DNA of 29,004 bases. Source: a virus (taxonomy: Duplodnaviria > Heunggongvirae > Uroviricota > Caudoviricetes). Made by a program: the position numbers and the translations under genes. Location of the stretch: IMG/VR virus record IMGVR_UViG_643348547_000007, one strand, 5' to 3'. Every line of letters starts with the position of its first letter. Positions within the stretch are counted from its first letter, which is position 1. Below, piece by piece: positions 1-29,004 of the stretch. The notes below the pieces were generated by a model. It was not told the DNA's origin, searched no databases, and saw only the letters and a program-made list of their open reading frames with translations.

Positions 1-1284
1 TTACAGACTTCTTGAAGGTTGCGCAGCTGCTACAACACGCGGTTGATCTTCCGCGGCATCTTCCAGTGCACTTAAATCACGGTCTTTCACTTCTGGCATT
101 TTCAGCGCAGAGATTAAACCAATCACTGAATATGCCATGATCATAATGGCGATCGGATACCAGGATTCCGTCATGGTGCAGAAAATACCCGCCAGGATAG
201 GACCAAAACCGGAAGCGATAAGACCACCAATTTCTTTAGAAATAGCCATCCGGGTAAAGCGGTTTTTACAGCCGAACATTTCTGCCATGGTAATGTTTTC
301 CAGAGCAAATAATCCCAGCACCGCACAGTTATGAATCACAATCAGTGCAACCATAATGGTGCTCGGGGCATAGCTTTTATCTACGATGATAGAAAGCATT
401 GGCCACGCCAGCACAATCGCAGAGGTATTCATAATAATATACGGGATCCGGCGACCTATTTTATCGGATAACCAACCAAGGAACGGAATGGTCATAAAGC
501 CGAGAATCGAACTGATCATCAATGCATCTGTTGGAATTGCTTTGTTAAACAATAACGTCTGCACTAAATAGCCTGCAAGGAAAGTCTGAATTAAACCGGA
601 GTTACCAGCCTGACCAAAACGCAGCCCTGTTGCCAGCCAGAAGGATTTGCTCTGGAACATGCTACCAGCAGGTGCAGGTTTTGCTGTCGGTTGGTTACTG
701 TCGTTAACCTTCTCAAAGACCGGGCTTTCTTTCAGATTCATACGCAACCAGATAGCAAAGACCATCACGACAACGCTCGCCAGGAAAGGTATACGCCATC
801 CCCACGCCAGCAGTTCCTCTTTACTGAGAATGAAGAACATAAAGGCCCAGATTGCCGTTGCGCTCAAGGTTCCGCAGTTAGTTCCCATAGCCACAAATGA
901 GGAGATAATTCCGCGCTTACCTTTTGGCGCATATTCCGCCAGCATCGTACCGGCACCGGAAATTTCCGCGCCAGCCCCCAGCCCCTGAATAATACGCAGC
1001 GTCACCAGCAAAATTGGCGCAAACACACCAATTTGTGCATAGGTCGGCAGCACACCAATTAAGGTGGTACAGATCCCCATCATGGTGATGGTAATAAAGA
1101 GCACTTTTTTACGCCCTATTCTGTCGCCCATTTTGCCGAAAATAAATGCTCCGACAATACGTGCCACATAACCTGCACCATAGGTTCCCATTGCCAGAAT
1201 TAACGCCATTGCCGTTGACGATTCAGGAAAAAATATTTCATGAAAAACTAACGCTGCGCCGAGCGAATATAACTGGAAATCCAT
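1..1284 (-). CDS. ydfJ: MFS (metabolite:H+ symporter-type) transporter, 427 aa; N-terminus appears to begin inside the first conserved motif, consistent with a 5' end replaced at a prophage junction
   Basis: Complete 427-aa ORF with its stop at positions 1-3; hydrophobic multi-TM protein with MFS-like motifs (GxLxDRxGRKK-type loop). Its position next to ydfK and pin matches the Qin-type prophage context as I recall it. Confidence 0.75.
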   Translation of the reverse strand: MDFQLYSLGAALVFHEIFFPESSTAMALILAMGTYGAGYVARIVGAFIFGKMGDRIGRKKVLFITITMMGICTTLIGVLPTYAQIGVFAPILLVTLRIIQGLGAGAEISGAGTMLAEYAPKGKRGIISSFVAMGTNCGTLSATAIWAFMFFILSKEELLAWGWRIPFLASVVVMVFAIWLRMNLKESPVFEKVNDSNQPTAKPAPAGSMFQSKSFWLATGLRFGQAGNSGLIQTFLAGYLVQTLLFNKAIPTDALMISSILGFMTIPFLGWLSDKIGRRIPYIIMNTSAIVLAWPMLSIIVDKSYAPSTIMVALIVIHNCAVLGLFALENITMAEMFGCKNRFTRMAISKEIGGLIASGFGPILAGIFCTMTESWYPIAIMIMAYSVIGLISALKMPEVKDRDLSALEDAAEDQPRVVAAAQPSRSL

Positions 1285-1525
1285 AATTCACAGGTGTTTT
1301 TTCCCATCCTGTGGTTTCCTTGGCGTTTTCTAGGTTTTTTCAGATAGTTGCATTTTTTAAAAAGCATCCTAAGTTCGATCTCAGTGTCTATCTGGGGCCT
1401 ATTTCTGTCCCATATATGCCCCAAAAAAACTCCTCAACAGATAAGTAGTTTTTTCATGGAGTTACGCGTAAAATCAATAACGGCTGGAAATCATTCAATA
1501 CTCGCACTATCGAAAAATTTACCAG

Positions 1526-1569
1526 CCAACCGCAGCACGTTCTTGCATAAGGCGTGTCTGCGGTTTTTC
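1526..1569 (+). terminator. Intrinsic-terminator-like hairpin (interrupted ~10-bp stem CCGCAGCACG/CGTGTCTGCGG, then TTTTT) in the ydfJ-ydfK spacer
   Basis: Inverted repeat at 1530-1539 and 1553-1563 followed by a T-run at 1564-1568, read directly from the sequence; no upstream plus-strand gene identified. Confidence 0.3.
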
Positions 1570-1887
1570 AACTATTCAGATACATCACTCCCATCACATT
1601 CATTCCTCCGCATCAAAGGCATATAGGCTATATCACCTTGATATTTTTCTTCTTCAGATAAAAACTGTTATCTATGTATACTTTTAAACCCAATCCGTGT
1701 AGAGTCTCTGCATAAGATAGTTTGCAGTTGCCACTTCAGCTTGCGCCATAAACCGCCTGATTTTTGCCGCCATCTGTTAGCATTCCTGTATACCTGAAAC
1801 GACAATGTTTATCTACGAACTTTAAGAACACCCAGGATAAAAATTGTCAACTATATCATATATAACACATTACTAATTCGAGGCTAT

Positions 1888-2001
1888 ATGAACAGCATAC
1901 TGATAATCACTTCGCTCCTTATCATATTCAGCATTTTTAGTCATGCTCTAATAAAATTAGGGATTGGCATATCCAATAACCCAGACAAAACCGATGTATA
2001 A
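1888..2001 (+). CDS. Candidate small hydrophobic protein (37 aa, [37 protein letters not shown]), single predicted TM helix
   Basis: ATG at 1888 preceded by GAGG 4 nt upstream; uninterrupted 37-codon frame to TAA at 1999-2001; strongly hydrophobic core. Below the 60-aa cutoff of the supplied ORF track. Confidence 0.35.
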
Positions 2002-2069
2002 GTCAACATATCCTGAATCAGACATACAATATCGCAATGAAAATCAATAATATTTTAAGGAATATATTC

Positions 2070-2303
2070 ATGAAATCAAAAGACACCCTAAAGTGGTTCC
2101 CTGCGCAGCTTCCTGAAGTCAGAATTATCCTAGGGGATGCTGTAGTGGAAGTAGCAAAACAGGGAAGACCTATCAATACCAGAACATTGCTTGATTACAT
2201 TGAAGGAAACATAAAGAAAAAATCATGGCTGGATAACAAAGAATTATTACAAACAGCGATATCAGTTCTTAAAGACAACCAAAATTTAAATGGTAAAATG
2301 TAA
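2070..2303 (+). CDS. ydfK: Prophage cold-shock-type small protein (YdfK/YnaE family), 77 aa from the internal ATG
   Basis: ORF 2037-2303; likely true start is ATG 2070 (MKSKDTLKWF...) preceded by AAGGA; sequence matches the YdfK/YnaE prophage family from memory. Confidence 0.7.
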   Translation: MKSKDTLKWFPAQLPEVRIILGDAVVEVAKQGRPINTRTLLDYIEGNIKKKSWLDNKELLQTAISVLKDNQNLNGKM

Positions 2304-2619
2304 TATAATAAACTTACTTTTTTATCATTTTTCCACTTTAACAACATTTTGCTCCACTTTTCCACGACCAAACAACTTGAAATCTGGTTAAAATAACACG
2401 CAACACTATTCTTCTTCCTTGAGTCCGCCCGGAACTCGAAAAACAAACCGAGTTAAAGCCATTTTTCACAAAATCGATTTTGGGTCTCACCAAAATTACG
2501 GGGTTGCATACGCATTCGTTTATTTTCGAACGTGTACATACAAACATGCACAAAAATAATCAAAATTATTTTCTGAGATGCATTATGATATGAACACCAA
2601 TTTCGTATAGAGTCTCACT

Positions 2620-2982
2620 ATGTCTCGAATTTTTGCTTACTGTCGGATATCAACGCTGGATCAGACCACCGAAAATCAACGCCGGGAAATCGAAAGTGCA
2701 GGTTTTAAAATCAAACCTCAGCAAATAATCGAAGAACACATTAGCGGCTCAGCAGCAACCAGTGAGCGTCCTGGTTTTAACCGGTTGCTTGCTCGCCTGA
2801 AATGTGGTGATCAATTGATTGTGACAAAACTGGATCGCCTTGGTTGTAATGCAATGGATATCAGGAAAACAGTGGAACAACTGACCGAAACAGGTATCAG
2901 AGTGCATTGCTTAGCATTGGGGGGCATTGACCTGACCAGTCCAACAGGAAAAATGATGATGCAAGTAATTTCAGCAGTCTGA
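2620..2982 (+). pseudogene. pin: Serine recombinase / DNA invertase (Pin/Gin/Hin family), truncated after codon 120 by IS629; the TGA stop is supplied by the first 3 bases of the IS
   Basis: N-terminal resolvase catalytic domain ([15 protein letters not shown]..., catalytic Ser in the RIST motif). Full-length invertases are about 190 aa; the C-terminal HTH is absent. The ORF ends exactly at the IS629 inverted repeat (2980). Confidence 0.85.
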
Positions 2983-3021
2983 ACCGCCCCGGGTTTCCTG
3001 GAGAGTGTTTTATCTGTGAAC

Positions 3022-3912
3022 TCAGGCTGCCAGATCATCGTTTCCGATGGAAGCATAATAAGCTTTTTCTGCTTCTGCCGGAGGAGTATGGCCCAGCCTT
3101 TCCAGCAATCGTCGATTGTTATACCAGTCCACCCACGTGAGTGTGGCCAGTTCCACTTCTGCACGGTTTTTCCAGCTCTTACGGTGTATTACCTCCGCTT
3201 TGTAAAGACCATTGATGCTCTCCGCCATCGCGTTGTCATACGAGTCGCCTGTACTTCCTGTTGATGCCAGTAATCCGGCTTCCTTAAGCCGCTGTGTGTA
3301 GGCCAGCGATACATACTGAGAACCTTTATCACTGTGATGGACCGTGCCGGACGGTCGACGGGCCCATAACGCCTGCTCCAGTGCATCCAGCACGAATGTC
3401 GTTTCCATGGACGATGAGACCCGCCACCCCACGATGTATCCGGCAAACACATCAATGATGAACGCCACATAGACGAAGCCCCGCCATGTGCTGACGTAAG
3501 TAAAATCAGCCACCCACAGCTGGTCAGGTCGTTCTGCCACGAACTGACGGTTTACGCGGTCGCCTGCGGCAACGGCTTTCCGGCTGATGGTCGTACGGAC
3601 CTTTTTACCCCGGAGAACACCGGCAAGTCCCATAACCGCCATGAGACGTGCCACAGTGCATCTGGCCACTCTGATACCTTCCCGTAACAACTGACGCCAG
3701 ACTTTACGCACACCGTATACCTTGTGATTTTCATCGTATACGCGCTGTATCTCTTTCTTCAGCCAGTCATCGCGCTGCGCACGGGCACTGCGTTTATCCG
3801 GATGATGTCGCTGTTGCTGACAGTGGTAATACGTTGACGGGGCAATATGCAGTTCGCTGCATAGCGGTCCGACCCCGTACTGCTCACGCAGCTTATCCAG
3901 CAGTGGCATCAT
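3022..3912 (-). CDS. IS629 OrfB (DDE transposase catalytic part, normally made as an OrfAB frameshift fusion), 296 aa
   Basis: ORF overlaps the orfA end in the -1 frame, as is typical of the IS3 family; DDE-type integrase-core sequence. Confidence 0.9.
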
Positions 3913-4235
3913 TTTTTCCAGAGGCGGTCGAACTCCGCCTTCGCAAAATAAGCGGAAGCCTGGCGAAGGATATCGTTACTGCGGCGCAGTTCACGATTTT
4001 CACGTTCCAGCTCTTTCAGACGCTGACGTTCAGCGGTGGTGAGCCCTCCATCACCGCCCCCGGTATCCCGCTCATGCTGGCGAACCCAGACACGCAGAGT
4101 CTCCGGCGTACAGCCAATCTTTGGAGCAATGGAACAAATTGTCGCCCATTGTGAGTCATATTCGCTCTGACTTTCCAGAACCATACGGACTGCCCGTTGA
4201 CGGACTTCGGGGGAAAAACGAGTATTTTTAGTCAT
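3909..4235 (-). CDS. IS629 OrfA (transposase N-terminal, HTH/leucine-zipper part), 108 aa
   Basis: [21 protein letters not shown]... translation; identical ORF present in the second IS copy at 28199-28525. Confidence 0.9.
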
Positions 4236-4240
4236 CCTGT

Positions 4241-4894
4241 TTACCTCTTTCTCAGGAAGTTTAGTCTCCAGGATTCCCGGGGCGGTTCAACCAGACGTTC
4301 GTACATTACACCTTCGGCAACAAGGCCATTGCTGGAAATAGCTTCAGGAGCATCATTCTCGTTAGCTGGTCGCCAGTGAACAAACTGAGGGGCAATTTCT
4401 CCTACTTCCTCGGCAATCAATCCATAGAATCCCCAATCGCGCCTGTCATTTTCGCATTGCGACCTGTACCACACAGGGCGCATCCTGAAAATGAGATCGG
4501 CGTGCTCCGAATCTATCGTCTCTACTGAATGTTTATAGCGGATAGACGATGTGGACCGCAGTACAGACGAAATTGCGGGGTCAGGATTAAGATAAAGGTT
4601 TGCCGCCGCTGTAGTCGTGCCCAATCCCCACAAATAAAACGCTTCACGACCAGTCAGCGGGTAAAAATCTCCACCATAACGACCACTTTCCAGATCGTTC
4701 ACTTCCACTTTGTTTTTCAGCTTATTATCAACTTCAGTTTTTGTGTATCTGGTGCTGATATCCTGCTTTGCACTGGTCATATCAGTCTGAAGCGTTGATA
4801 CTTTTCCGTTAATTGAGGAAATATCTTCCTTGGCTTTACTGACATCTCCCTTTAACGTGGTGATGTCTCCTGGAATTACTGTCGATGTAGCCAT
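4241..4894 (-). pseudogene. Tail-fibre-associated protein with a coiled-coil N-terminus, 3'-truncated by IS629 (native part 4290-4894; last 16 codons are read from IS sequence)
   Basis: Own start with a GAGGGAGA Shine-Dalgarno before ATG 4894; Ser/Thr/Lys-rich heptad-like N-terminus; the ORF runs across the IS629 boundary at 4289/4290. The C-terminal region is loosely reminiscent of fibre intramolecular-chaperone domains (tentative). Confidence 0.55.
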
Positions 4895-4903
4895 TTGTCT
4901 CCC

Positions 4904-5185
4904 TCACATCCAGCCACGAAGTTGATGCTCAACAACAATCGCGTATTTATCGAATATTGACGATTTTTTTGCATCATTAATGATGCGCACGTTTACAAAA
5001 TATCCGTCCTCCTTAACACATACCGGTTCGCCATCTTCAGTCAGTTCTCCGGTTTCTTTGTACACGTTACCTATCACGTCAATAAGAATATCATCCTGCA
5101 TCGACTCGTCATCATAATAGCCAATACTCTCCATAAAGGCCGAAAAGTCGGCCCTGTCTGCAAATTTGAGCGTTAAATCTTTCAT
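4904..5185 (-). CDS. Hypothetical acidic 93-aa protein, translationally coupled to stf (ATGA overlap)
   Basis: ATG 5185 overlaps the stf TGA (5182-5184); strong GGGGGAGAG Shine-Dalgarno; no family recognised from the sequence. Confidence 0.55.
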   Translation of the reverse strand: MKDLTLKFADRADFSAFMESIGYYDDESMQDDILIDVIGNVYKETGELTEDGEPVCVKEDGYFVNVRIINDAKKSSIFDKYAIVVEHQLRGWM

Positions 5186-7581
5186 TTAATACTCTCCCCC
5201 ATTTGCGCATCAGTTAATTCTTTATGCCAGAGACGAAGATTTCTCAAATGGCCGAATAGATGACGAGTTCCCGATGTGGCTTGACCTCCAATTCGAATAA
5301 AGGTCCGTGTTTTTACGCCCGTCCACTCCGTTTTCATGGTTTTAGTAGCCTCACCGTTAGAAACTACTCGTTTAGTACCATCAGAATAAATATTAAAACC
5401 ACCAATGAATTTTCGAACATCAGTTCGACCAGCAAACACACTAGAAACGTAAGTACTTGTCGACGCTTTATAAGTTTGCATATAAAGCTGACCGTAATAT
5501 TTCTCAGTTGTGTTAAAAGCGTATGTAATTGACTCAATAGGTGGCACACCAGAAAAATCAAAAATACGCGGTGCTACATTAGGAGGAATATCGCCCCAAT
5601 TTCTATTAACCTCGACCAGGCACGTAAGCGGTCTATTATAGATATTATTTTCAGTTGGGATCGTCACCATATCACTGGAGCGGGTTGCGGGTACAGTTGT
5701 CGTAATAACAAAAGATGAAGCACATCCGCCGTTTTCAAATTGTGGTGTTGCAAGGTAAATATAATCTCCCGCTTCAGTTACACCACCTTTTTTCGGCGCA
5801 TACTGAATCATTGCGCCAATTAAGGTTTCACCTTCAACAGCTTCTATAGTTGCCTCATAGAAAATCCACCCTGTAACCGGATCTTTAGTTGCAGTAGCTG
5901 CTATTCTATTGGCTGCTCCGCCAGTTTTTTCTATTATCAGAGTTCCGAAAGTTAAATAAGCATCTCCTAAAAATGTATAAACCGACCCATCGTATTTTTC
6001 AAAACGCAAACGACAACGAAGACCATCAGGAGCTTTAACCCTGCATGAAACAGTGCAATACTTATTATCGCCACTAACATCAATCCCCCGGGATGCACTG
6101 CATGTATGCAGACTAAGTGCAGATGATTGTCCTGTCATATTATCTTTTGTTCGCATTTTGGCATATGAAAAACCAAATTCATCAACACCATTATTAGTTT
6201 TATCGATATTGCTGGTACTCGTCCATTCAGCGGGGATATTGGATTTAACAAAATAGTTAGTGCGCTGTCCTTCAATCAATAAACCTTCTTTTTCAAATCG
6301 TGGCTCATCAATTTTAGCAACACTAAATACGCCTGATTTATTGATATATGTGGCAGTTGATGCGCGTTTAAACTTTACAACCTTATCGCCAGGCATCGTT
6401 ATTTCATCATCACCAATAACAATCTTTTTATATGACGGCGAAAAGCCCGTAATCATATCCAGTGAATCGTTAAACGGTATCCACACATCGGGAAGCGGCT
6501 GCAAAACTTGTTTATACGGCTCCGCAGCCTGGCTTGCATACTCTCTGGCTGCGTCTTCACTTGCTTTTGCAGCCGTCTGGCTTGCTGCCGATGCTTTCGC
6601 TGAGTTAGCCGCCGCAGTCTCGCTCGCCTTTGCGTTGGTTTCACTGGTTTTTGCAGCTTTTTGACTGTTGGCTGATGCAGAGGCAGAAGAAGCCGCCGCA
6701 CTTGCAGAACCAGCTGCGGCACTCTCGCTTTGGGCTGCTGCATCCTGACTGTTTTTCGCCGCAGTTTCACTGGCTTTGGCATTCGTTTCGCTGGTCTTCG
6801 CTGCCGTCTGGCTGGACTTTGCGTTAGTTTCACTCGTCTTCGCAGCTTTCTGGCTGTTAGCCGCAGCAGTTGCTGATCCAGTTGCTGAAGTCGCAGAACC
6901 GGCTGCCGCGCTCTCGCTTTGGGCTGCTGCAACCTGGCTGTTTTTTGCCGCAGTTTCACTGGCTTTGGCATTCGTTTCGCTGGTCTTCGCTGCCGTCTGG
7001 CTGGACTTTGCGTTGGTTTCGCTCGTCTTTGCGGCTGTCTCGCTATTTTTCGCGTTGGTTTCTGATTTTTTGGCTGCTGTCGCGGAGTTTTCTGATGCAG
7101 TCTGTGAGGTCGCTGCCGCCTGTGCACTATTAGCTGCATTCGTTTCTGAGGTTTTCGCCGCGTTCTTCGATGATGCCGCTGCAGTTTCGGATTTCTTTGC
7201 CGCCGCTGCGCTCTGAGAGGCGGCTTCGGCGTTGCGTGCCGCTTCTTCCACCATTTCCTCAAAACGACGCAATGCCTCCGGCATGACATCATCTTCCGTC
7301 ATGGCACCGAGAAAATCATTCAGCGTACCTGGTCTGGAACCTTCATAGACGGTAATGGTTCCGGCATGTGAAGGCGGAAAACCTTCAACAAGCAGGATAA
7401 CGCTGTACTGGCCATACTCAACATCCATGCTGTAACGCCCGGCTTCATCCGGATTTTCAGAGGCCACCGTGTTCACCAGTACCGTGGTGCTGTTACGCTT
7501 TGCCTTCAGTTGAATAGTGCAGTTCTGTATTGGTTTTCCCGCACCATCTTTCAGCACACCTGAGATTTTTACTGCTGCCAT
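5182..7581 (-). CDS. stf: Side tail fibre protein (lambda Stf-like N-terminal domain, Ala/Ser/Thr-rich fibre repeats, divergent lectin-like C-terminal domain)
   Basis: N-terminus MAAVKISGVLKDG...GTITVYE matches the lambda Stf N-terminal domain from memory; likely start is ATG 7581 with GGAG upstream (the track's 7587 start is a GTG). Central KTSETNAKxSETAAK repeats. Confidence 0.85.
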   Translation of the reverse strand: MAAVKISGVLKDGAGKPIQNCTIQLKAKRNSTTVLVNTVASENPDEAGRYSMDVEYGQYSVILLVEGFPPSHAGTITVYEGSRPGTLNDFLGAMTEDDVMPEALRRFEEMVEEAARNAEAASQSAAAAKKSETAAASSKNAAKTSETNAANSAQAAATSQTASENSATAAKKSETNAKNSETAAKTSETNAKSSQTAAKTSETNAKASETAAKNSQVAAAQSESAAAGSATSATGSATAAANSQKAAKTSETNAKSSQTAAKTSETNAKASETAAKNSQDAAAQSESAAAGSASAAASSASASANSQKAAKTSETNAKASETAAANSAKASAASQTAAKASEDAAREYASQAAEPYKQVLQPLPDVWIPFNDSLDMITGFSPSYKKIVIGDDEITMPGDKVVKFKRASTATYINKSGVFSVAKIDEPRFEKEGLLIEGQRTNYFVKSNIPAEWTSTSNIDKTNNGVDEFGFSYAKMRTKDNMTGQSSALSLHTCSASRGIDVSGDNKYCTVSCRVKAPDGLRCRLRFEKYDGSVYTFLGDAYLTFGTLIIEKTGGAANRIAATATKDPVTGWIFYEATIEAVEGETLIGAMIQYAPKKGGVTEAGDYIYLATPQFENGGCASSFVITTTVPATRSSDMVTIPTENNIYNRPLTCLVEVNRNWGDIPPNVAPRIFDFSGVPPIESITYAFNTTEKYYGQLYMQTYKASTSTYVSSVFAGRTDVRKFIGGFNIYSDGTKRVVSNGEATKTMKTEWTGVKTRTFIRIGGQATSGTRHLFGHLRNLRLWHKELTDAQMGESIK
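6700..7077 (-). repeat. Tandem duplication of about 189 bp (63 codons) within the stf repeat region, embedded in shorter fibre-repeat periodicity
   Basis: CTCTCGCTTTGGGCTGCTGC and the following roughly 100 bp recur at 6722 and 6911 with few mismatches; the protein shows AAKTSETNAKSSQTAAKTSETNAKASETAAKNSQ twice. Confidence 0.6.
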
Positions 7582-7591
7582 ATCCACTCCA

Positions 7592-7618
7592 CAAAAAAGC
7601 CCGCCTGAACCGGCGGGC
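7592..7618 (-). terminator. Intrinsic terminator downstream of lom (stem GCCCGCC/GGCGGGC followed by a U-run on the minus strand)
   Basis: Inverted repeat at 7599-7605 and 7612-7618; on the minus strand it is followed by TTTTTTG (plus-strand A-run 7592-7597). Confidence 0.5.
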
Positions 7619-7645
7619 TGTCATAACACTGTGTTACCTGGCTAA

Positions 7646-8245
7646 TCAGAACTTATAACCGACACCCACGATGAAACCGTCAGTGCGCCAGTCGCCACTG
7701 CCGGAGCCTTCATAAGCAATATCAATGGCCACGGATTCGGTCGGGTTAAACTGCACGCCAGCTCCCCACGCCAGAGACGTGTTGCTGTGGCGATCGTCAT
7801 CACTTCCGGTCAGCACATCGTGCGTTTTCCCCTTGTTGTCAGTTACGCGGAGATAATCCCCGGAGAACGTCGAAACACGGCTGTAAGCCACACCCGCCAT
7901 CGCATACGCGCTGAACCATTCATTCACGCGCACAGACGGCCCCGCCATTACGCTGAACCAGCGGTTACGCACGGAATCTTCATGCCAGCGGGTATCGCTG
8001 TAATGCGTTTTTTGTTCATCTTCTGCGTCGGCATAACTGAAAGACGTAATCAGCCCCAGCGTGTCCGTAAATTCATAACGGTATTTCACGTTAATCCCGT
8101 TCAGATTATCGCTTCCTGGCATATCAGTGTGGGTCTGAAGATACCCGGCGCTTAGTGTGGACTGATGCTCTGCTGCGCTCGCTGGCGTACCAGCGGCAAC
8201 CAGCCAGACTACTGCGGACAGAATAACAGCACATAATTTACGCAT
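7646..8245 (-). CDS. lom: Lom outer-membrane protein (Ail/Lom/PagC family beta-barrel), 199 aa with signal peptide
   Basis: N-terminal signal peptide; C-terminus ...VAIDIAYEGSGSGDWRTDGFIVGVGYKF matches lambda Lom as recalled; located between J and stf as in lambda. Confidence 0.9.
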   Translation of the reverse strand: MRKLCAVILSAVVWLVAAGTPASAAEHQSTLSAGYLQTHTDMPGSDNLNGINVKYRYEFTDTLGLITSFSYADAEDEQKTHYSDTRWHEDSVRNRWFSVMAGPSVRVNEWFSAYAMAGVAYSRVSTFSGDYLRVTDNKGKTHDVLTGSDDDRHSNTSLAWGAGVQFNPTESVAIDIAYEGSGSGDWRTDGFIVGVGYKF

Positions 8246-8275
8246 AATTACCTCTCGCTTTTCTGCAATAAAAAA

Positions 8276-8303
8276 GGCGTCATTTCTGACGCCCGTATTG
8301 GGG
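8276..8303 (-). terminator. Intrinsic terminator between J and lom (stem GGCGTCA/TGACGCC, then a U-run on the minus strand)
   Basis: Inverted repeat at 8286-8292 and 8297-8303 with loop TTTC; on the minus strand it is followed by TTTTTTTATT. Confidence 0.5.
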
Positions 8304-8312
8304 TTATAAAAT

Positions 8313-11300
8313 TCAGCTAATCGTGATGCCTGCAGTGGCTTTCTTCATCACCACAACCAGCAAATCGCTGATACTTGCTGTGGGATACCAGTCATTTACC
8401 AGCCATGCTGACACCGAAAACTCCAGCGTCATGTGACCGTGACCGGCAGGCATATCAATAACGCCACTGTAAATCAGCGTATTATCCAGCGCGGTACGGT
8501 TATAAATTTCAGCACCGTTTTTCCGCACTATCAGACGGCATGAGGAGTAAATATCAGTATGCTCTCTCTCATGTTTAGCGCCGCTGAATGCCACCGCCGG
8601 AATAACAATCTGCCGGTCAAACGGCTGATCGTCATAAATCCTGACGGTAATGGTCCCTGATGGCCACCGTTCCGGTGCACGGGAGTCACGGGGGAAAGCC
8701 TTACCCACTGTTTTAACGAGATCGCCTTCAATCTGGTTTGCAGACAGTTTCCCTCTGATGACACAGTTCTCGTTAATGGTGACATTATTGAGCGTGCCGG
8801 TATTCGCCGTGATGGCTCCACTGATATCCGCATTGCGGGCTGTCAGCCTGCCATCCGGCGTCAGGGAAAACGTCGGAGGATTGCCGGATGACGTGATGCT
8901 CACCGCAAACAGTCGCTTCAGGAACACGTCGTTCATGAACAGCTGATTCCCCTGCGCCACAAATAACGGCGTGGTGTTACCGTTCTCCGGAGTAATCATC
9001 GCAATGCGATCGGCCTGCAGCAGAATGTTACTCAGCGTCTGACCATCGACATCCTCGATCCCCGCGCCAATCCCGGCCACATACGGAATACCCTTCTTCG
9101 TTTTCTGCACCTTCAGCATATACATGGCATTCAGATTATCGCGCGTGTCTGACTGAACCCGCTGGATTTGCTGTATGGTCACGGCCTGGTCACCCAGTTT
9201 TTTATCCGTGGTCGAGGCAATTTCACTCCCTTTTTCATCCACGTACTGACGGACCTGTGCTATCTGCCGGGCGTTTTCTGACTGGCCCTGGCTGACTGTC
9301 TGCTTGATTTCACTTTGCTTTTTGTCCACGTACTGGCGGACCTGTGCTATCTGTCGGGTATTTTCCTCACTGCTCTGACTGACCGTCTGTGAGATTTCAC
9401 TGCTGACACGGTCCACTTTCTGACTCACCTGCGCGATGGCCAGCGTCTGATCCTCATTCTTTTTCGCAACCAGCTGCGTGAGGCTGTTTTCCGCCTCCCC
9501 GATTTTCCGGGTCACTTCCGCAATATCCGTGTCCATCCGCTGACGGATGTCTTCTTCCAGTTGTCCGATATTCTCTTCCAGTTGAGTGACATCCGATCGC
9601 AGGGCTGACGCATCAATGCGCTTTTTCAGTGCCTGCCCCAGCAGCGTCTCATCTATCAGACCACGGAAAAATTCCAGATACCCTTTTGCATCATTGCTGG
9701 CCTGCCCGCTGGCTTCCACAAATGCAGACTTGCCCACCAGGTTGACACTGCGCACATAAAACCAGAAATCCATCCCCGGCTTAATCCGATCGCCCTGGAC
9801 AGTCCACTGACTGCCGGTCCCCAGATAACGGGCAGATTTTTCCACCTGTGCCGTGTTCGTGATGCGTTTTTCTGAGAACCAGAATTCAAACTGTATCGTC
9901 GGATCATACACCGCAAGACGCGGGACCGCCGTTATCTGAAAATACCCCGGCGTCAGCTCAATGGTGGCGGGTTTTGCAGGCGCGTTAATCCGGAAGGTGG
10001 TGGTCGCAGGTTCGCCCTGCTGGCCGTAGCTGTTAATGGCCCGCACCGTCAGGGTGTATTCCCCCAGCGGCAGACCACTGAAACGGTGCTCCGTGTCTGC
10101 GGTGATGGCGGTGCTCACCAGACGGCTGTCTTCTCCGCTTCCGCTGGTCAGACGCAGACTGAAGCGCACACCCTTCACCACCCGCGGCGTGTCCCATTTC
10201 GCCTGTGCCAGATACTGACCGTCAGCTGCACTCACCTCCACCGTCAGGTGCTGCACTGCCGGTGGGATAACGCTGTTCAGGCTGCCTGACTGCGGCTCAA
10301 AGCGGGCACCGTTATCCACAATGGCTTCTTTTTCCGGTACGTGCTGCACCGCCGTGATGGCGAACGTGCCGTCCGTGTTTTCCCGGATGGAGACACAGCG
10401 GAACAGGCGACGACGCAGTGACGGCAGGGAGAGTCCCCACACCCCGTATGTCTCCACACCATCCGGCAGGGTGCTGACCTGTATCCGGTCAGGCGCGGGG
10501 TGTGCGGTGATGGCCACGCTCGCCGGCTTACCGCTGCCGTTAATCAGATTAACAGTGGCCGTGCCGGTCTCCGGCAGTGTCACCTCCCGGTCCAGCGTCA
10601 GGGTACGGCTGGCGGCATCGATGGACAGGACACGTCCGCCGGTCATGGTCCCGGCATAGTCGTTATCACAGATTTCAATGATGTCACCGGGTGTGTGCCG
10701 CAGCCCCTGAGACCCGAGCGTGAAATCCACCGTCTGCGTTTCCAGCAGTTCGGTCTTTATCACCCACAGCCCGGCACGGTGGGCCTGACCGCGGCTGGTA
10801 CAGCCGAACGCGTCCATCTTCAGCAGGTTGCGTCCGTAGCGCAGTATGGCTTCCGGGTCTTCCACCAGTTCCGTGGAGGTCTGCCAGCCGTTCTGCGGGT
10901 CGGTGTAATTCACCTCCACCGCCGTGTGCCGGTCCTTCAGGGCACTGAAGCTGTAGCGGAACCCCACGCCGTTATCATCCACCACCACATCGCTGTTGGT
11001 GTACGGCCACACCACATCCGACGGGCGGTCCTGAACGAACGTCAGCGTCTGACCGTTCCATACCGGCATACAGCGCATCGCAGAGCAGAAATCACTGAGA
11101 ACGTCCCACGCCTTACGCTGTTGTGCCAGGTACGCATTAAAGGTCATCCGCGGCTCGGTCCCCCCGAAACCATCCGGGACCGTCTGGTCGCAGTACTGCC
11201 CGATGGCATACAGCGCCCACTTGTCCACATCCGCCGCCCCCAGACGTTTTCCCATGCCGTAGCGCGGGTGAGTCAGCATGTCCCACAGGCACCAGGCCGG

Positions 11301-20288: not shown

Positions 20289-20664
20289 GCTCAGCCGTTC
20301 CGTGCTGTATCATGGCTGTCGCCAGTGGTGATGGCACCATAACACGCATGCCCCGGTACGTCAGTTCAACGGGACGGCCTGTCTCCGGGCAATACCCCAT
20401 CACATGCAGGCATTTCCGCACACGGACCGCTTTAACATCATCCGTAGCATCAGTGTTGTGCAACTGCTCACCATCGTCTGTGTGATTTTGATCAGCCCCG
20501 CTCTCATCAGAGTGCATAATGCCCTCCGGGGAAACAGCAAGCTCCTCTTCCCACTCAGACACACGTTGAGCAATATCCGCAGCACTCCCCGACATATCCG
20601 CCTCGCGCCCCAGCAGGCCAGCCAGTTGACGAAGACGATTCAGATTTTCTTCTTTTGTTGCCAT
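20281..20664 (-). CDS. FI: DNA-packaging / head completion protein FI-like, about 127 aa from ATG 20664
   Basis: Sits between E and FII as in lambda; acidic central region; start chosen at the ATG preceded by AGGAGG rather than the track's upstream start at 20712. Confidence 0.7.
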   Translation of the reverse strand: MATKEENLNRLRQLAGLLGREADMSGSAADIAQRVSEWEEELAVSPEGIMHSDESGADQNHTDDGEQLHNTDATDDVKAVRVRKCLHVMGYCPETGRPVELTYRGMRVMVPSPLATAMIQHGTAEHA

Positions 20665-28144: not shown

Positions 28145-28198
28145 TGAACCGCCCCGGGAATCCTGGAGACTAAACTTCCTGAGAAAGAGGTAAACAGG

Positions 28199-28525
28199 AT
28201 GACTAAAAATACTCGTTTTTCCCCCGAAGTCCGTCAACGGGCAGTCCGTATGGTTCTGGAAAGTCAGAGCGAATATGACTCACAATGGGCGACAATTTGT
28301 TCCATTGCTCCAAAGATTGGCTGTACGCCGGAGACTCTGCGTGTCTGGGTTCGCCAGCATGAGCGGGATACCGGGGGCGGTGATGGAGGGCTCACCACCG
28401 CTGAACGTCAGCGTCTGAAAGAGCTGGAACGTGAAAATCGTGAACTGCGCCGCAGTAACGATATCCTTCGCCAGGCTTCCGCTTATTTTGCGAAGGCGGA
28501 GTTCGACCGCCTCTGGAAAAAATGA
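28199..28525 (+). CDS. IS629 OrfA (second copy), 108 aa
   Basis: Translation identical to the copy at 3909-4235. Confidence 0.9.
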
Positions 28526-28939
28526 TGCCACTGCTGGATAAGCTGCGTGAGCAGTACGGGGTCGGACCGCTATGCAGCGAACTGCATATTGCCCCGTCAA
28601 CGTATTACCACTGTCAGCAACAGCGACATCATCCGGATAAACGCAGTGCCCGTGCGCAGCGCGATGACTGGCTGAAGAAAGAGATACAGCGCGTATACGA
28701 TGAAAATCACAAGGTATACGGTGTGCGTAAAGTCTGGCGTCAGTTGTTACGGGAAGGTATCAGAGTGGCCAGATGCACTGTGGCACGTCTCATGGCGGTT
28801 ATGGGACTTGCCGGTGTTCTCCGGGGTAAAAAGGTCCGTACGACCATCAGCCGGAAAGCCGTTGCCGCAGGCGACCGCGTAAACCGTCAGTTCGTGGCAG
28901 AACGACCTGACCAGCTGTGGGTGGCTGATTTTACTTACG
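28522..28939 (+). pseudogene. IS629 OrfB, 3'-truncated or interrupted after about 139 codons
   Basis: Identical to copy 1 OrfB up to ...QLWVADFTY, then unrelated sequence (GVPGVQGGHGCLNEPRVCLEY) to the window end. Confidence 0.8.
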
Positions 28940-29004
28940 GTGTGCCCGGAGTTCAGGGCGGGCATGGATGCTTAAATGAACCGCGAGTCTGTCTGGAATA
29001 TTGA

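Follow-up and report, generated by a model that had tools for sequence, protein, structure and literature searches.

Only 21 of the 47 IS629 sites in four O157 genomes carry a matching duplication of 3-4 bp (PMC3271280), and experiments on the IS3 transposase have shown that adjacent DNA can be deleted while the IS itself is preserved, with more such events when IEE is present and with endpoint homology of no more than 6 bp (PMC8860574). The IEE-dependent deletions that adjoin IS629 can be as short as a few nucleotides or exceed 40 kb (PMC9943667); both deletions next to IS629 or IS3 and IS629 copies without a duplication are thus on record for E. coli O157 and related strains (Ooka et al. 2009, as cited in PMC9943667; PMC3271280; PMC8860574). 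IS629-linked deletion without a duplication is an ordinary and well-known form of IS-driven prophage decay, already documented for IS629 as well as for IS3.

The DNA analysed here, a stretch of 29,004 nucleotides from a lambdoid prophage (hereafter the window), contains a locus of this kind; its source is the single 5.13-Mb contig of E. coli IAI39 (O7:K1; CU928164.2, GCA_000026345.1). As in the IS629 and IS3 adjacent deletions of O157, the IS is intact, the deletion starts from its terminal nucleotide, the duplication copy on that side is gone and the endpoints share little or no homology; the lambdoid setting is likewise shared, most IS629 copies lying in such prophages. Unlike the O157 cases, the host is an extraintestinal strain. 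The genes to the left of pin (ydfI, ydfJ', ynfT and ydfK) indicate a prophage integrated at ydfJ, and its end resembles the cryptic Qin/Rac-type prophage ends of K-12, which presumably occupy the same chromosomal site with the gene order ydfJ'-ynfT-ydfK-pinQ: in both, pin converges on tail-fibre genes and no functional invertible segment is found. In contrast to the K-12 ends, tfa was here already a 36-codon stub, pin is split by IS629, and the fibre module takes the form 'phage_tail_N fibre / 93-aa / S74-domain / 97-aa'.

We interpret the locus as the product of two successive events in the O7:K1 lineage, an insertion of IS629 with duplication of GTC and then, in IAI39, an IS-adjacent deletion of 865 bp, and we assign this reading a probability of roughly 0.88. 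It explains the missing duplication of the IS629 copy in pin and defines the prophage genes that IAI39 has lost relative to its clone-mates. As one more case of IS629 eroding cryptic prophages, the locus has little importance beyond annotation; its insertion, deletion and IS-IS recombination junctions are usable as lineage markers within the O7:K1 clone.

The IS629 copy in pin and its ancestral setting

The element that interrupts pin (Table 1) is complete, with ends TGAACCGCCCCGGGTTTCC... on the 2980 side and ...CCCGGGGCGGTTCA on the 4289 side, and alignment of IRL with IRR gives the imperfect terminal inverted repeats, beginning TGAACCGCCCCGG, that together with a length of about 1310 bp characterize IS629. 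Pfam HTH_Tnp_1 and rve are recorded for its transposase ORFs, which overlap at 3909-3912 in the ORF list and display the two-ORF, -1 frameshift organization of the IS3 group. The whole element is 100% identical to a copy in strain CE10 (L006 7190-8499); the name IS629 follows the annotation of near-identical copies, such as that of strain AR_0013, which PGAP calls 'IS3-like element IS629 family transposase'.

Table 1. Features of the pin-fibre locus and segments absent from the window. Positions are those of the window; the breakdown of the 862 lost native bases is taken from the annotation of NCTC9022 and CE10.
Feature	Position	Strand	Length	Remarks
pinQ-type serine invertase gene, truncated	2620-2982	+	120 native codons	TGA stop at 2980-2982, the first three bases of the IS
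GTC	2977-2979			surviving copy of the 3-bp target-site duplication; on both sides in CE10, single at the NCTC9022 empty site
IS629-type IS3-family element, complete	2980-4289	-	1310 bp	IRR at 2980, IRL (orfA-proximal end) at 4289
orfB	3022-3912	-	296 aa	matches NCBIfam IS3 transposase model (transpos_IS3)
ALIL frameshift pseudoknot	3838-3954	-		Rfam ALIL, 120 bits
orfA	3909-4235	-	108 aa	matches NCBIfam IS3 transposase model (transpos_IS3)
Tail-fibre-domain gene, 3'-truncated	4241-4894	-	217-aa ORF	Peptidase_S74 / intramolecular-chaperone type
Deletion junction	4289-4290			865 bp missing relative to CE10 and N32: one GTC copy plus 862 bp of prophage DNA
Second IS629 copy	28145-29004	+		in opposite orientation to the first; next to the gene for the terminase small subunit; not involved in the 865-bp deletion
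Lost: pin codons 121-196 and stop			231 nt	
Lost: spacer after pin			97 nt	
Lost: C-terminal tfa stub			111 nt	36 codons, annotated pseudogene; Pfam Caudo_TAP positions 95-130 of 131
Lost: spacer between tfa stub and 97-aa ORF			19 nt	
Lost: 97-aa hypothetical ORF			294 nt	without Pfam or NCBIfam match
Lost: spacer between 97-aa ORF and fibre-domain gene			10 nt	
Lost: end of the 705-nt fibre-domain gene			100 nt	last 32 codons and stop

The original prediction described an IS629 without a target-site duplication, flanked by GTC (2977-2979) and ACC (4290-4292), and its coordinates and sequence proved accurate: the window has no direct repeat of 3 or 4 bp at these ends. The setting of the element was compared across 5426 complete E. 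coli genomes, a set that does not include IAI39 and is hence independent of it. Only two strains, CE10 (O7:K1) and N32 (isolated from CSF), cover the whole length of a query spanning window positions 1900-5300, and in both the match falls into two pieces with about 865 extra bases between them. In dozens of IS-free genomes the matches to the two flanks always span 2953 bp, with 862 bp in between; as the original prediction held, the locus as it stands is not a simple insertion.

Local alignment with CE10 places the missing DNA exactly. Window positions 1-4289 correspond to CE10 locus L001 1102-5390 with one mismatch, and positions 4288-8300 to L001 6254-10266; over window positions 4290-7750 there are no differences, and the sole local difference is a gap of 865 bp that starts from the last base of the IS (L001 5391-6255, directly after the IRL end), with the IS intact and the flank contiguous in the ancestral arrangement. 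The position of the junction is ambiguous by 2 bp (CA). The junctions themselves bear this out at the level of single bases: in CE10 they read ...TTTCAGCAGTC, IS629, GTCGCTGAATTT..., a clean GTC duplication that is also present in N32; the empty site of NCTC9022 reads ...CAGCAGTC followed directly by GCTGAATTT..., with one GTC; and in the window they read ...CAGCAGTC, IS629, ACCAGACGTT..., where ACCAGACGTT is preceded in CE10 by ...AGTGGAACA and lies 865 bp farther along. In CE10 and N32, IS629 interrupts pin at the same base as in the window and has the same orientation; theirs is a simple insertion with the expected 3-bp duplication, the second GTC of which is absent from the window copy after the later deletion.

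The left junction, between pin codon 120 and IRR, is common to four complete genomes (CE10, N32, AR_0013 and AF57), whereas the window's right-hand junction is found in 0 of the 5426, and the fusion protein encoded across it is carried by IAI39 only, according to a lookup in a gene-position index. The absence of the junction elsewhere and the confinement of the fusion ORF to IAI39 mark the deletion as derived and private to the strain, and by parsimony the distribution would reflect one insertion in an ancestor of the clone followed by a deletion in IAI39.

Gene content of the lost interval

Both genes that face each other across the IS are shortened, as had been claimed from the window. The invertase indeed stops at codon 120, with a stop codon supplied by the end of the IS, and the 120 residues that remain match the start of the 196-aa PinQ of the IS-free strain NCTC9022 (residues 1-120) with 100% identity. 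They retain positions 1-120 of the 145-position Pfam Resolvase match and lack positions 121-145; the HTH_7 domain, which occupies residues 147-190 of the intact protein, is gone, whereas the NCTC9022 orthologue has both domains. The window protein thus has neither the complete catalytic domain nor the C-terminal HTH by which Din-family invertases are recognized, and because its catalytic domain is shortened and its DNA-binding domain absent, this Pin would be expected to be inactive.

On the other side, the ORF associated with the tail fibre has lost its 3' end, a loss limited to 32 codons. It consists of 202 native codons (4289-4894, minus strand) followed by 15 codons encoded by the IS, with a stop inside the element; the 202 residues are identical to those of the 234-aa 'tail fiber domain-containing protein' WP_000235984.1, and the Pfam Peptidase_S74 match (residues 116-172) is kept. 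With its last 32 residues lost and a foreign tail of 15 residues in their place, the protein is probably misfolded. A dead invertase and a fibre-domain protein damaged at its C terminus, in a prophage already riddled with ISs, would be the outcome, one that fits the general picture of prophage decay.

The neighbouring tail-fibre gene, which encodes 801 aa, is a single open frame in the window (5182-7587, minus strand) with internal direct repeats of about 190 bp that are 84% identical, for example 6610-6855 and 6799-7044. PGAP annotates its equivalent in CE10, N32 and NCTC9022 as several fragments and pseudogenes; since window positions 4290-7750 do not differ from CE10, this fragmentation is, at least for CE10, a difference of annotation and not of sequence.

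The content of the interval before the deletion bears on the question of an invertible fibre system at this locus. The statement that no tfa gene or crossover sites remain is borne out near pin in the window, where we found neither a tfa gene nor a Din-type crossover core (searched as AAACCNNGGTTT with at most one mismatch, the conserved core only). The further suggestion that an IS-linked deletion removed a pin-tfa-stf invertible system does not stand. In the IS-free relatives, NCTC9022 and the dozens of genomes with the 2953-bp spacing, the interval between pinQ and the fibre gene holds only the tfa stub and the 97-aa ORF; the same core-pattern search over the whole of an IS-free locus (L002) returned no Din-type core, and the pin-fibre locus of these relatives showed no convincing inverted repeats. 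Judged by the core pattern and by inverted repeats, two inverted 26-bp sites flanking alternative fibre/tfa cassettes, the arrangement typical of the Din family, are not present at this locus. Both tfa and the invertible segment had accordingly been lost before IS629 inserted, given that IS-free relatives have the stub only and no crossover core, which corrects the view that the IS removed the system.

Insertion, deletion and their alternatives

The two events can be reconstructed as follows. An ordinary copy-out/paste-in transposition placed IS629 after codon 120 of the pinQ-type gene and duplicated the target GTC. On the IAI39 branch only, 865 bp abutting the IRL end were then deleted and the IS left intact, with the loss of the right-hand GTC, pin codons 121-196, the tfa stub, the 97-aa ORF and the last 32 codons and stop of the fibre-domain gene, which is convergent with pin. 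An endpoint at the IS terminus, an intact IS and the disappearance of one copy of the duplication are the marks of an IS-adjacent deletion, and we consider the 865-bp deletion most likely to be IS-dependent. The comparison shows directly what the locus looked like before, how far the deletion reaches and that the IS was kept, whereas the dependence on the IS and the route are inferences. It could have arisen in one step, as an adjacent deletion initiated by the transposase at the IRL end, or through the insertion of a second direct IS629 862 bp away and homologous recombination between the two copies; the two routes give identical products, and the mechanism cannot be read from the product.

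The two-step route, a sub-case of the main explanation, would require a second direct IS629 in the fibre-domain gene, at ...GGAACA/ACC..., and RecA-dependent recombination that removed one IS together with the 862 bp. Homologous recombination between direct copies likewise leaves one IS with non-matching triplets, as demonstrated for the pin copy in AR_0013 and AF57, where it underwent recombination with a further direct copy located in the same prophage; with at least three direct IS629 copies in the CE10 prophage, local hopping followed by recombination would give the observed product. What differs here is that an IS629 at the distal site (...GTGGAACA / ACCAGACG...) occurs in 0 of the 5426 genomes, and the final sequence would in any case look the same as that of a one-step adjacent deletion. 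We regard the route as a serious possibility that falls somewhat short of even odds. Of the two origins proposed in the original prediction, deletion associated with the IS is thus upheld by DNA that goes missing exactly at the IS end, and recombination between two IS copies operated at this very IS in AR_0013 and AF57, though on a different scale; for the window's event, none of the 5426 genomes has a second copy at the endpoint. Its suggestion that the 3' half of pin might lie beside another IS629 does not hold in the window, and by comparison with CE10 that half has simply been deleted. A surrogate IS end at the endpoint on the deleted side was also considered and is unconvincing, with only 5 of the last 8 bases matching the terminal repeat of the IS by eye.

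Explanations that dispense with the IS, or with the deletion itself, fare much less well. Replication slippage or illegitimate recombination might have ended at the IS terminus by chance, and the 2-bp CA overlap at the junction could be taken as its trace, but about 1 junction in 16 would share two bases by chance, the deletion ends within 2 bp of the final IS base, the IS is untouched, and other IS629 copies of the clone are also flanked in the manner of a deletion (ydaT'-IS-'exo in CE10); we think such an origin improbable. An assembly artefact, in which the repeat was collapsed and IAI39 is really CE10-like or has the 862 bp between two direct IS629 copies, is slightly harder still to credit: IS629 is multicopy, with two copies in the window alone, and the junction is known from one strain only, yet the assembler would have had to throw out the reads of a unique 862-bp stretch, the flanking DNA otherwise agrees with CE10 base for base, and the finished state of the chromosome, assembled from Sanger paired-end libraries, also counts against it. 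That the flanks are contiguous without the IS and a 3-bp duplication was misread, the finding that was to overturn the original prediction, is ruled out by the IS-free relatives, and simple insertion has next to no chance of being correct given the 862 bp that separate the flanks in every such relative examined.

Among five genomes, the pin copy of IS629 displays three right-hand junctions: the intact duplication, the adjacent loss of 865 bp and a deletion of about 49.5 kb between two IS copies. A more ambitious and tentative proposal, which we would sooner doubt than assert, is that this one copy has been a repeated nucleus of deletion within a single O7:K1 clone and that the 865-bp event was a natural one-step, transposase-initiated, IS-retaining adjacent deletion. 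If true, the locus would be a natural case of a class of deletion documented so far mainly on laboratory plasmids, and the O7:K1 clone would provide a natural series well suited to the question of whether IEE is required for them.

Other IS629 copies in the O7:K1 clone and beyond

The large deletion is seen in AR_0013 (L007 7121-10700) and in AF57 (L008, same coordinates), in which the left junction of the insertion in pin is as in the window, the IS629 carries a group II intron, and the IRL end abuts a 5'-truncated exonuclease gene, exo, followed by xis, int and rspB. The right flank in these strains, GAACGGTCATC..., is exactly the right flank of a CE10 IS629 (L009 19355-20664, IRL end at 20664) that lies in the same prophage and the same orientation as the pin copy, about 49.5 kb away. 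In AR_0013 and AF57, recombination between two direct IS629 copies thus deleted the intervening 49.5 kb or so, almost the whole prophage, and the existence of this third right-hand junction shows that IS629-linked deletion is active in the O7:K1 clone.

The CE10 prophage at ydfJ also carries IS100, two copies of IS600 and at least three of IS629. The flanks of the CE10 IS629 copies vary. The copy at L009 19355-20664 has unmatched triplets (...TTCAG-IS-GAACGG) and sits between truncated ydaT and truncated exo, whereas at L009 11167-12476 the element stands between perfectly matching AAG triplets. The copy at L006 7190-8499, near terS, is again flanked by unmatched triplets (...CACAG-IS-CACATG).

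The second IS629 of the window is identical to the first for 795 bp and then diverges. Its 860 bp in the window align throughout with the intron-bearing IS629 of AR_0013 at 99.9% identity, a match that identifies the divergent part as a group II intron (ltrA type) after IS nucleotide 795; no intron is present in the corresponding CE10 copy. We rejected this second copy as a cause, by inversion or recombination, of the missing duplication: beyond the right end of the first IS the DNA runs colinear with that of CE10 and of the IS-free strains, without inversion, and the flank of the second copy is the same as in CE10.

Over its full length, the window is chimeric, with segments of two CE10 prophages. 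Its first part, up to about position 8750, matches the prophage at ydfJ, and positions 7686-28939 match, at 98.5% and in reverse orientation, a prophage next to ompW and trp about 325 kb away. This pattern suggests that IAI39 and CE10 may differ by a large inversion between two lambdoid prophages, with a crossover in the lom/J region (window positions of about 7700-9000, from lom to the 3' end of gpJ).

In other E. coli, PSS-12 for example, independent IS3-family insertions of the IS1203/IS629 type lie in or beside pinR or pinQ at different positions; prophage invertase loci (pinR/pinQ) have been hit repeatedly by IS3-family insertions.
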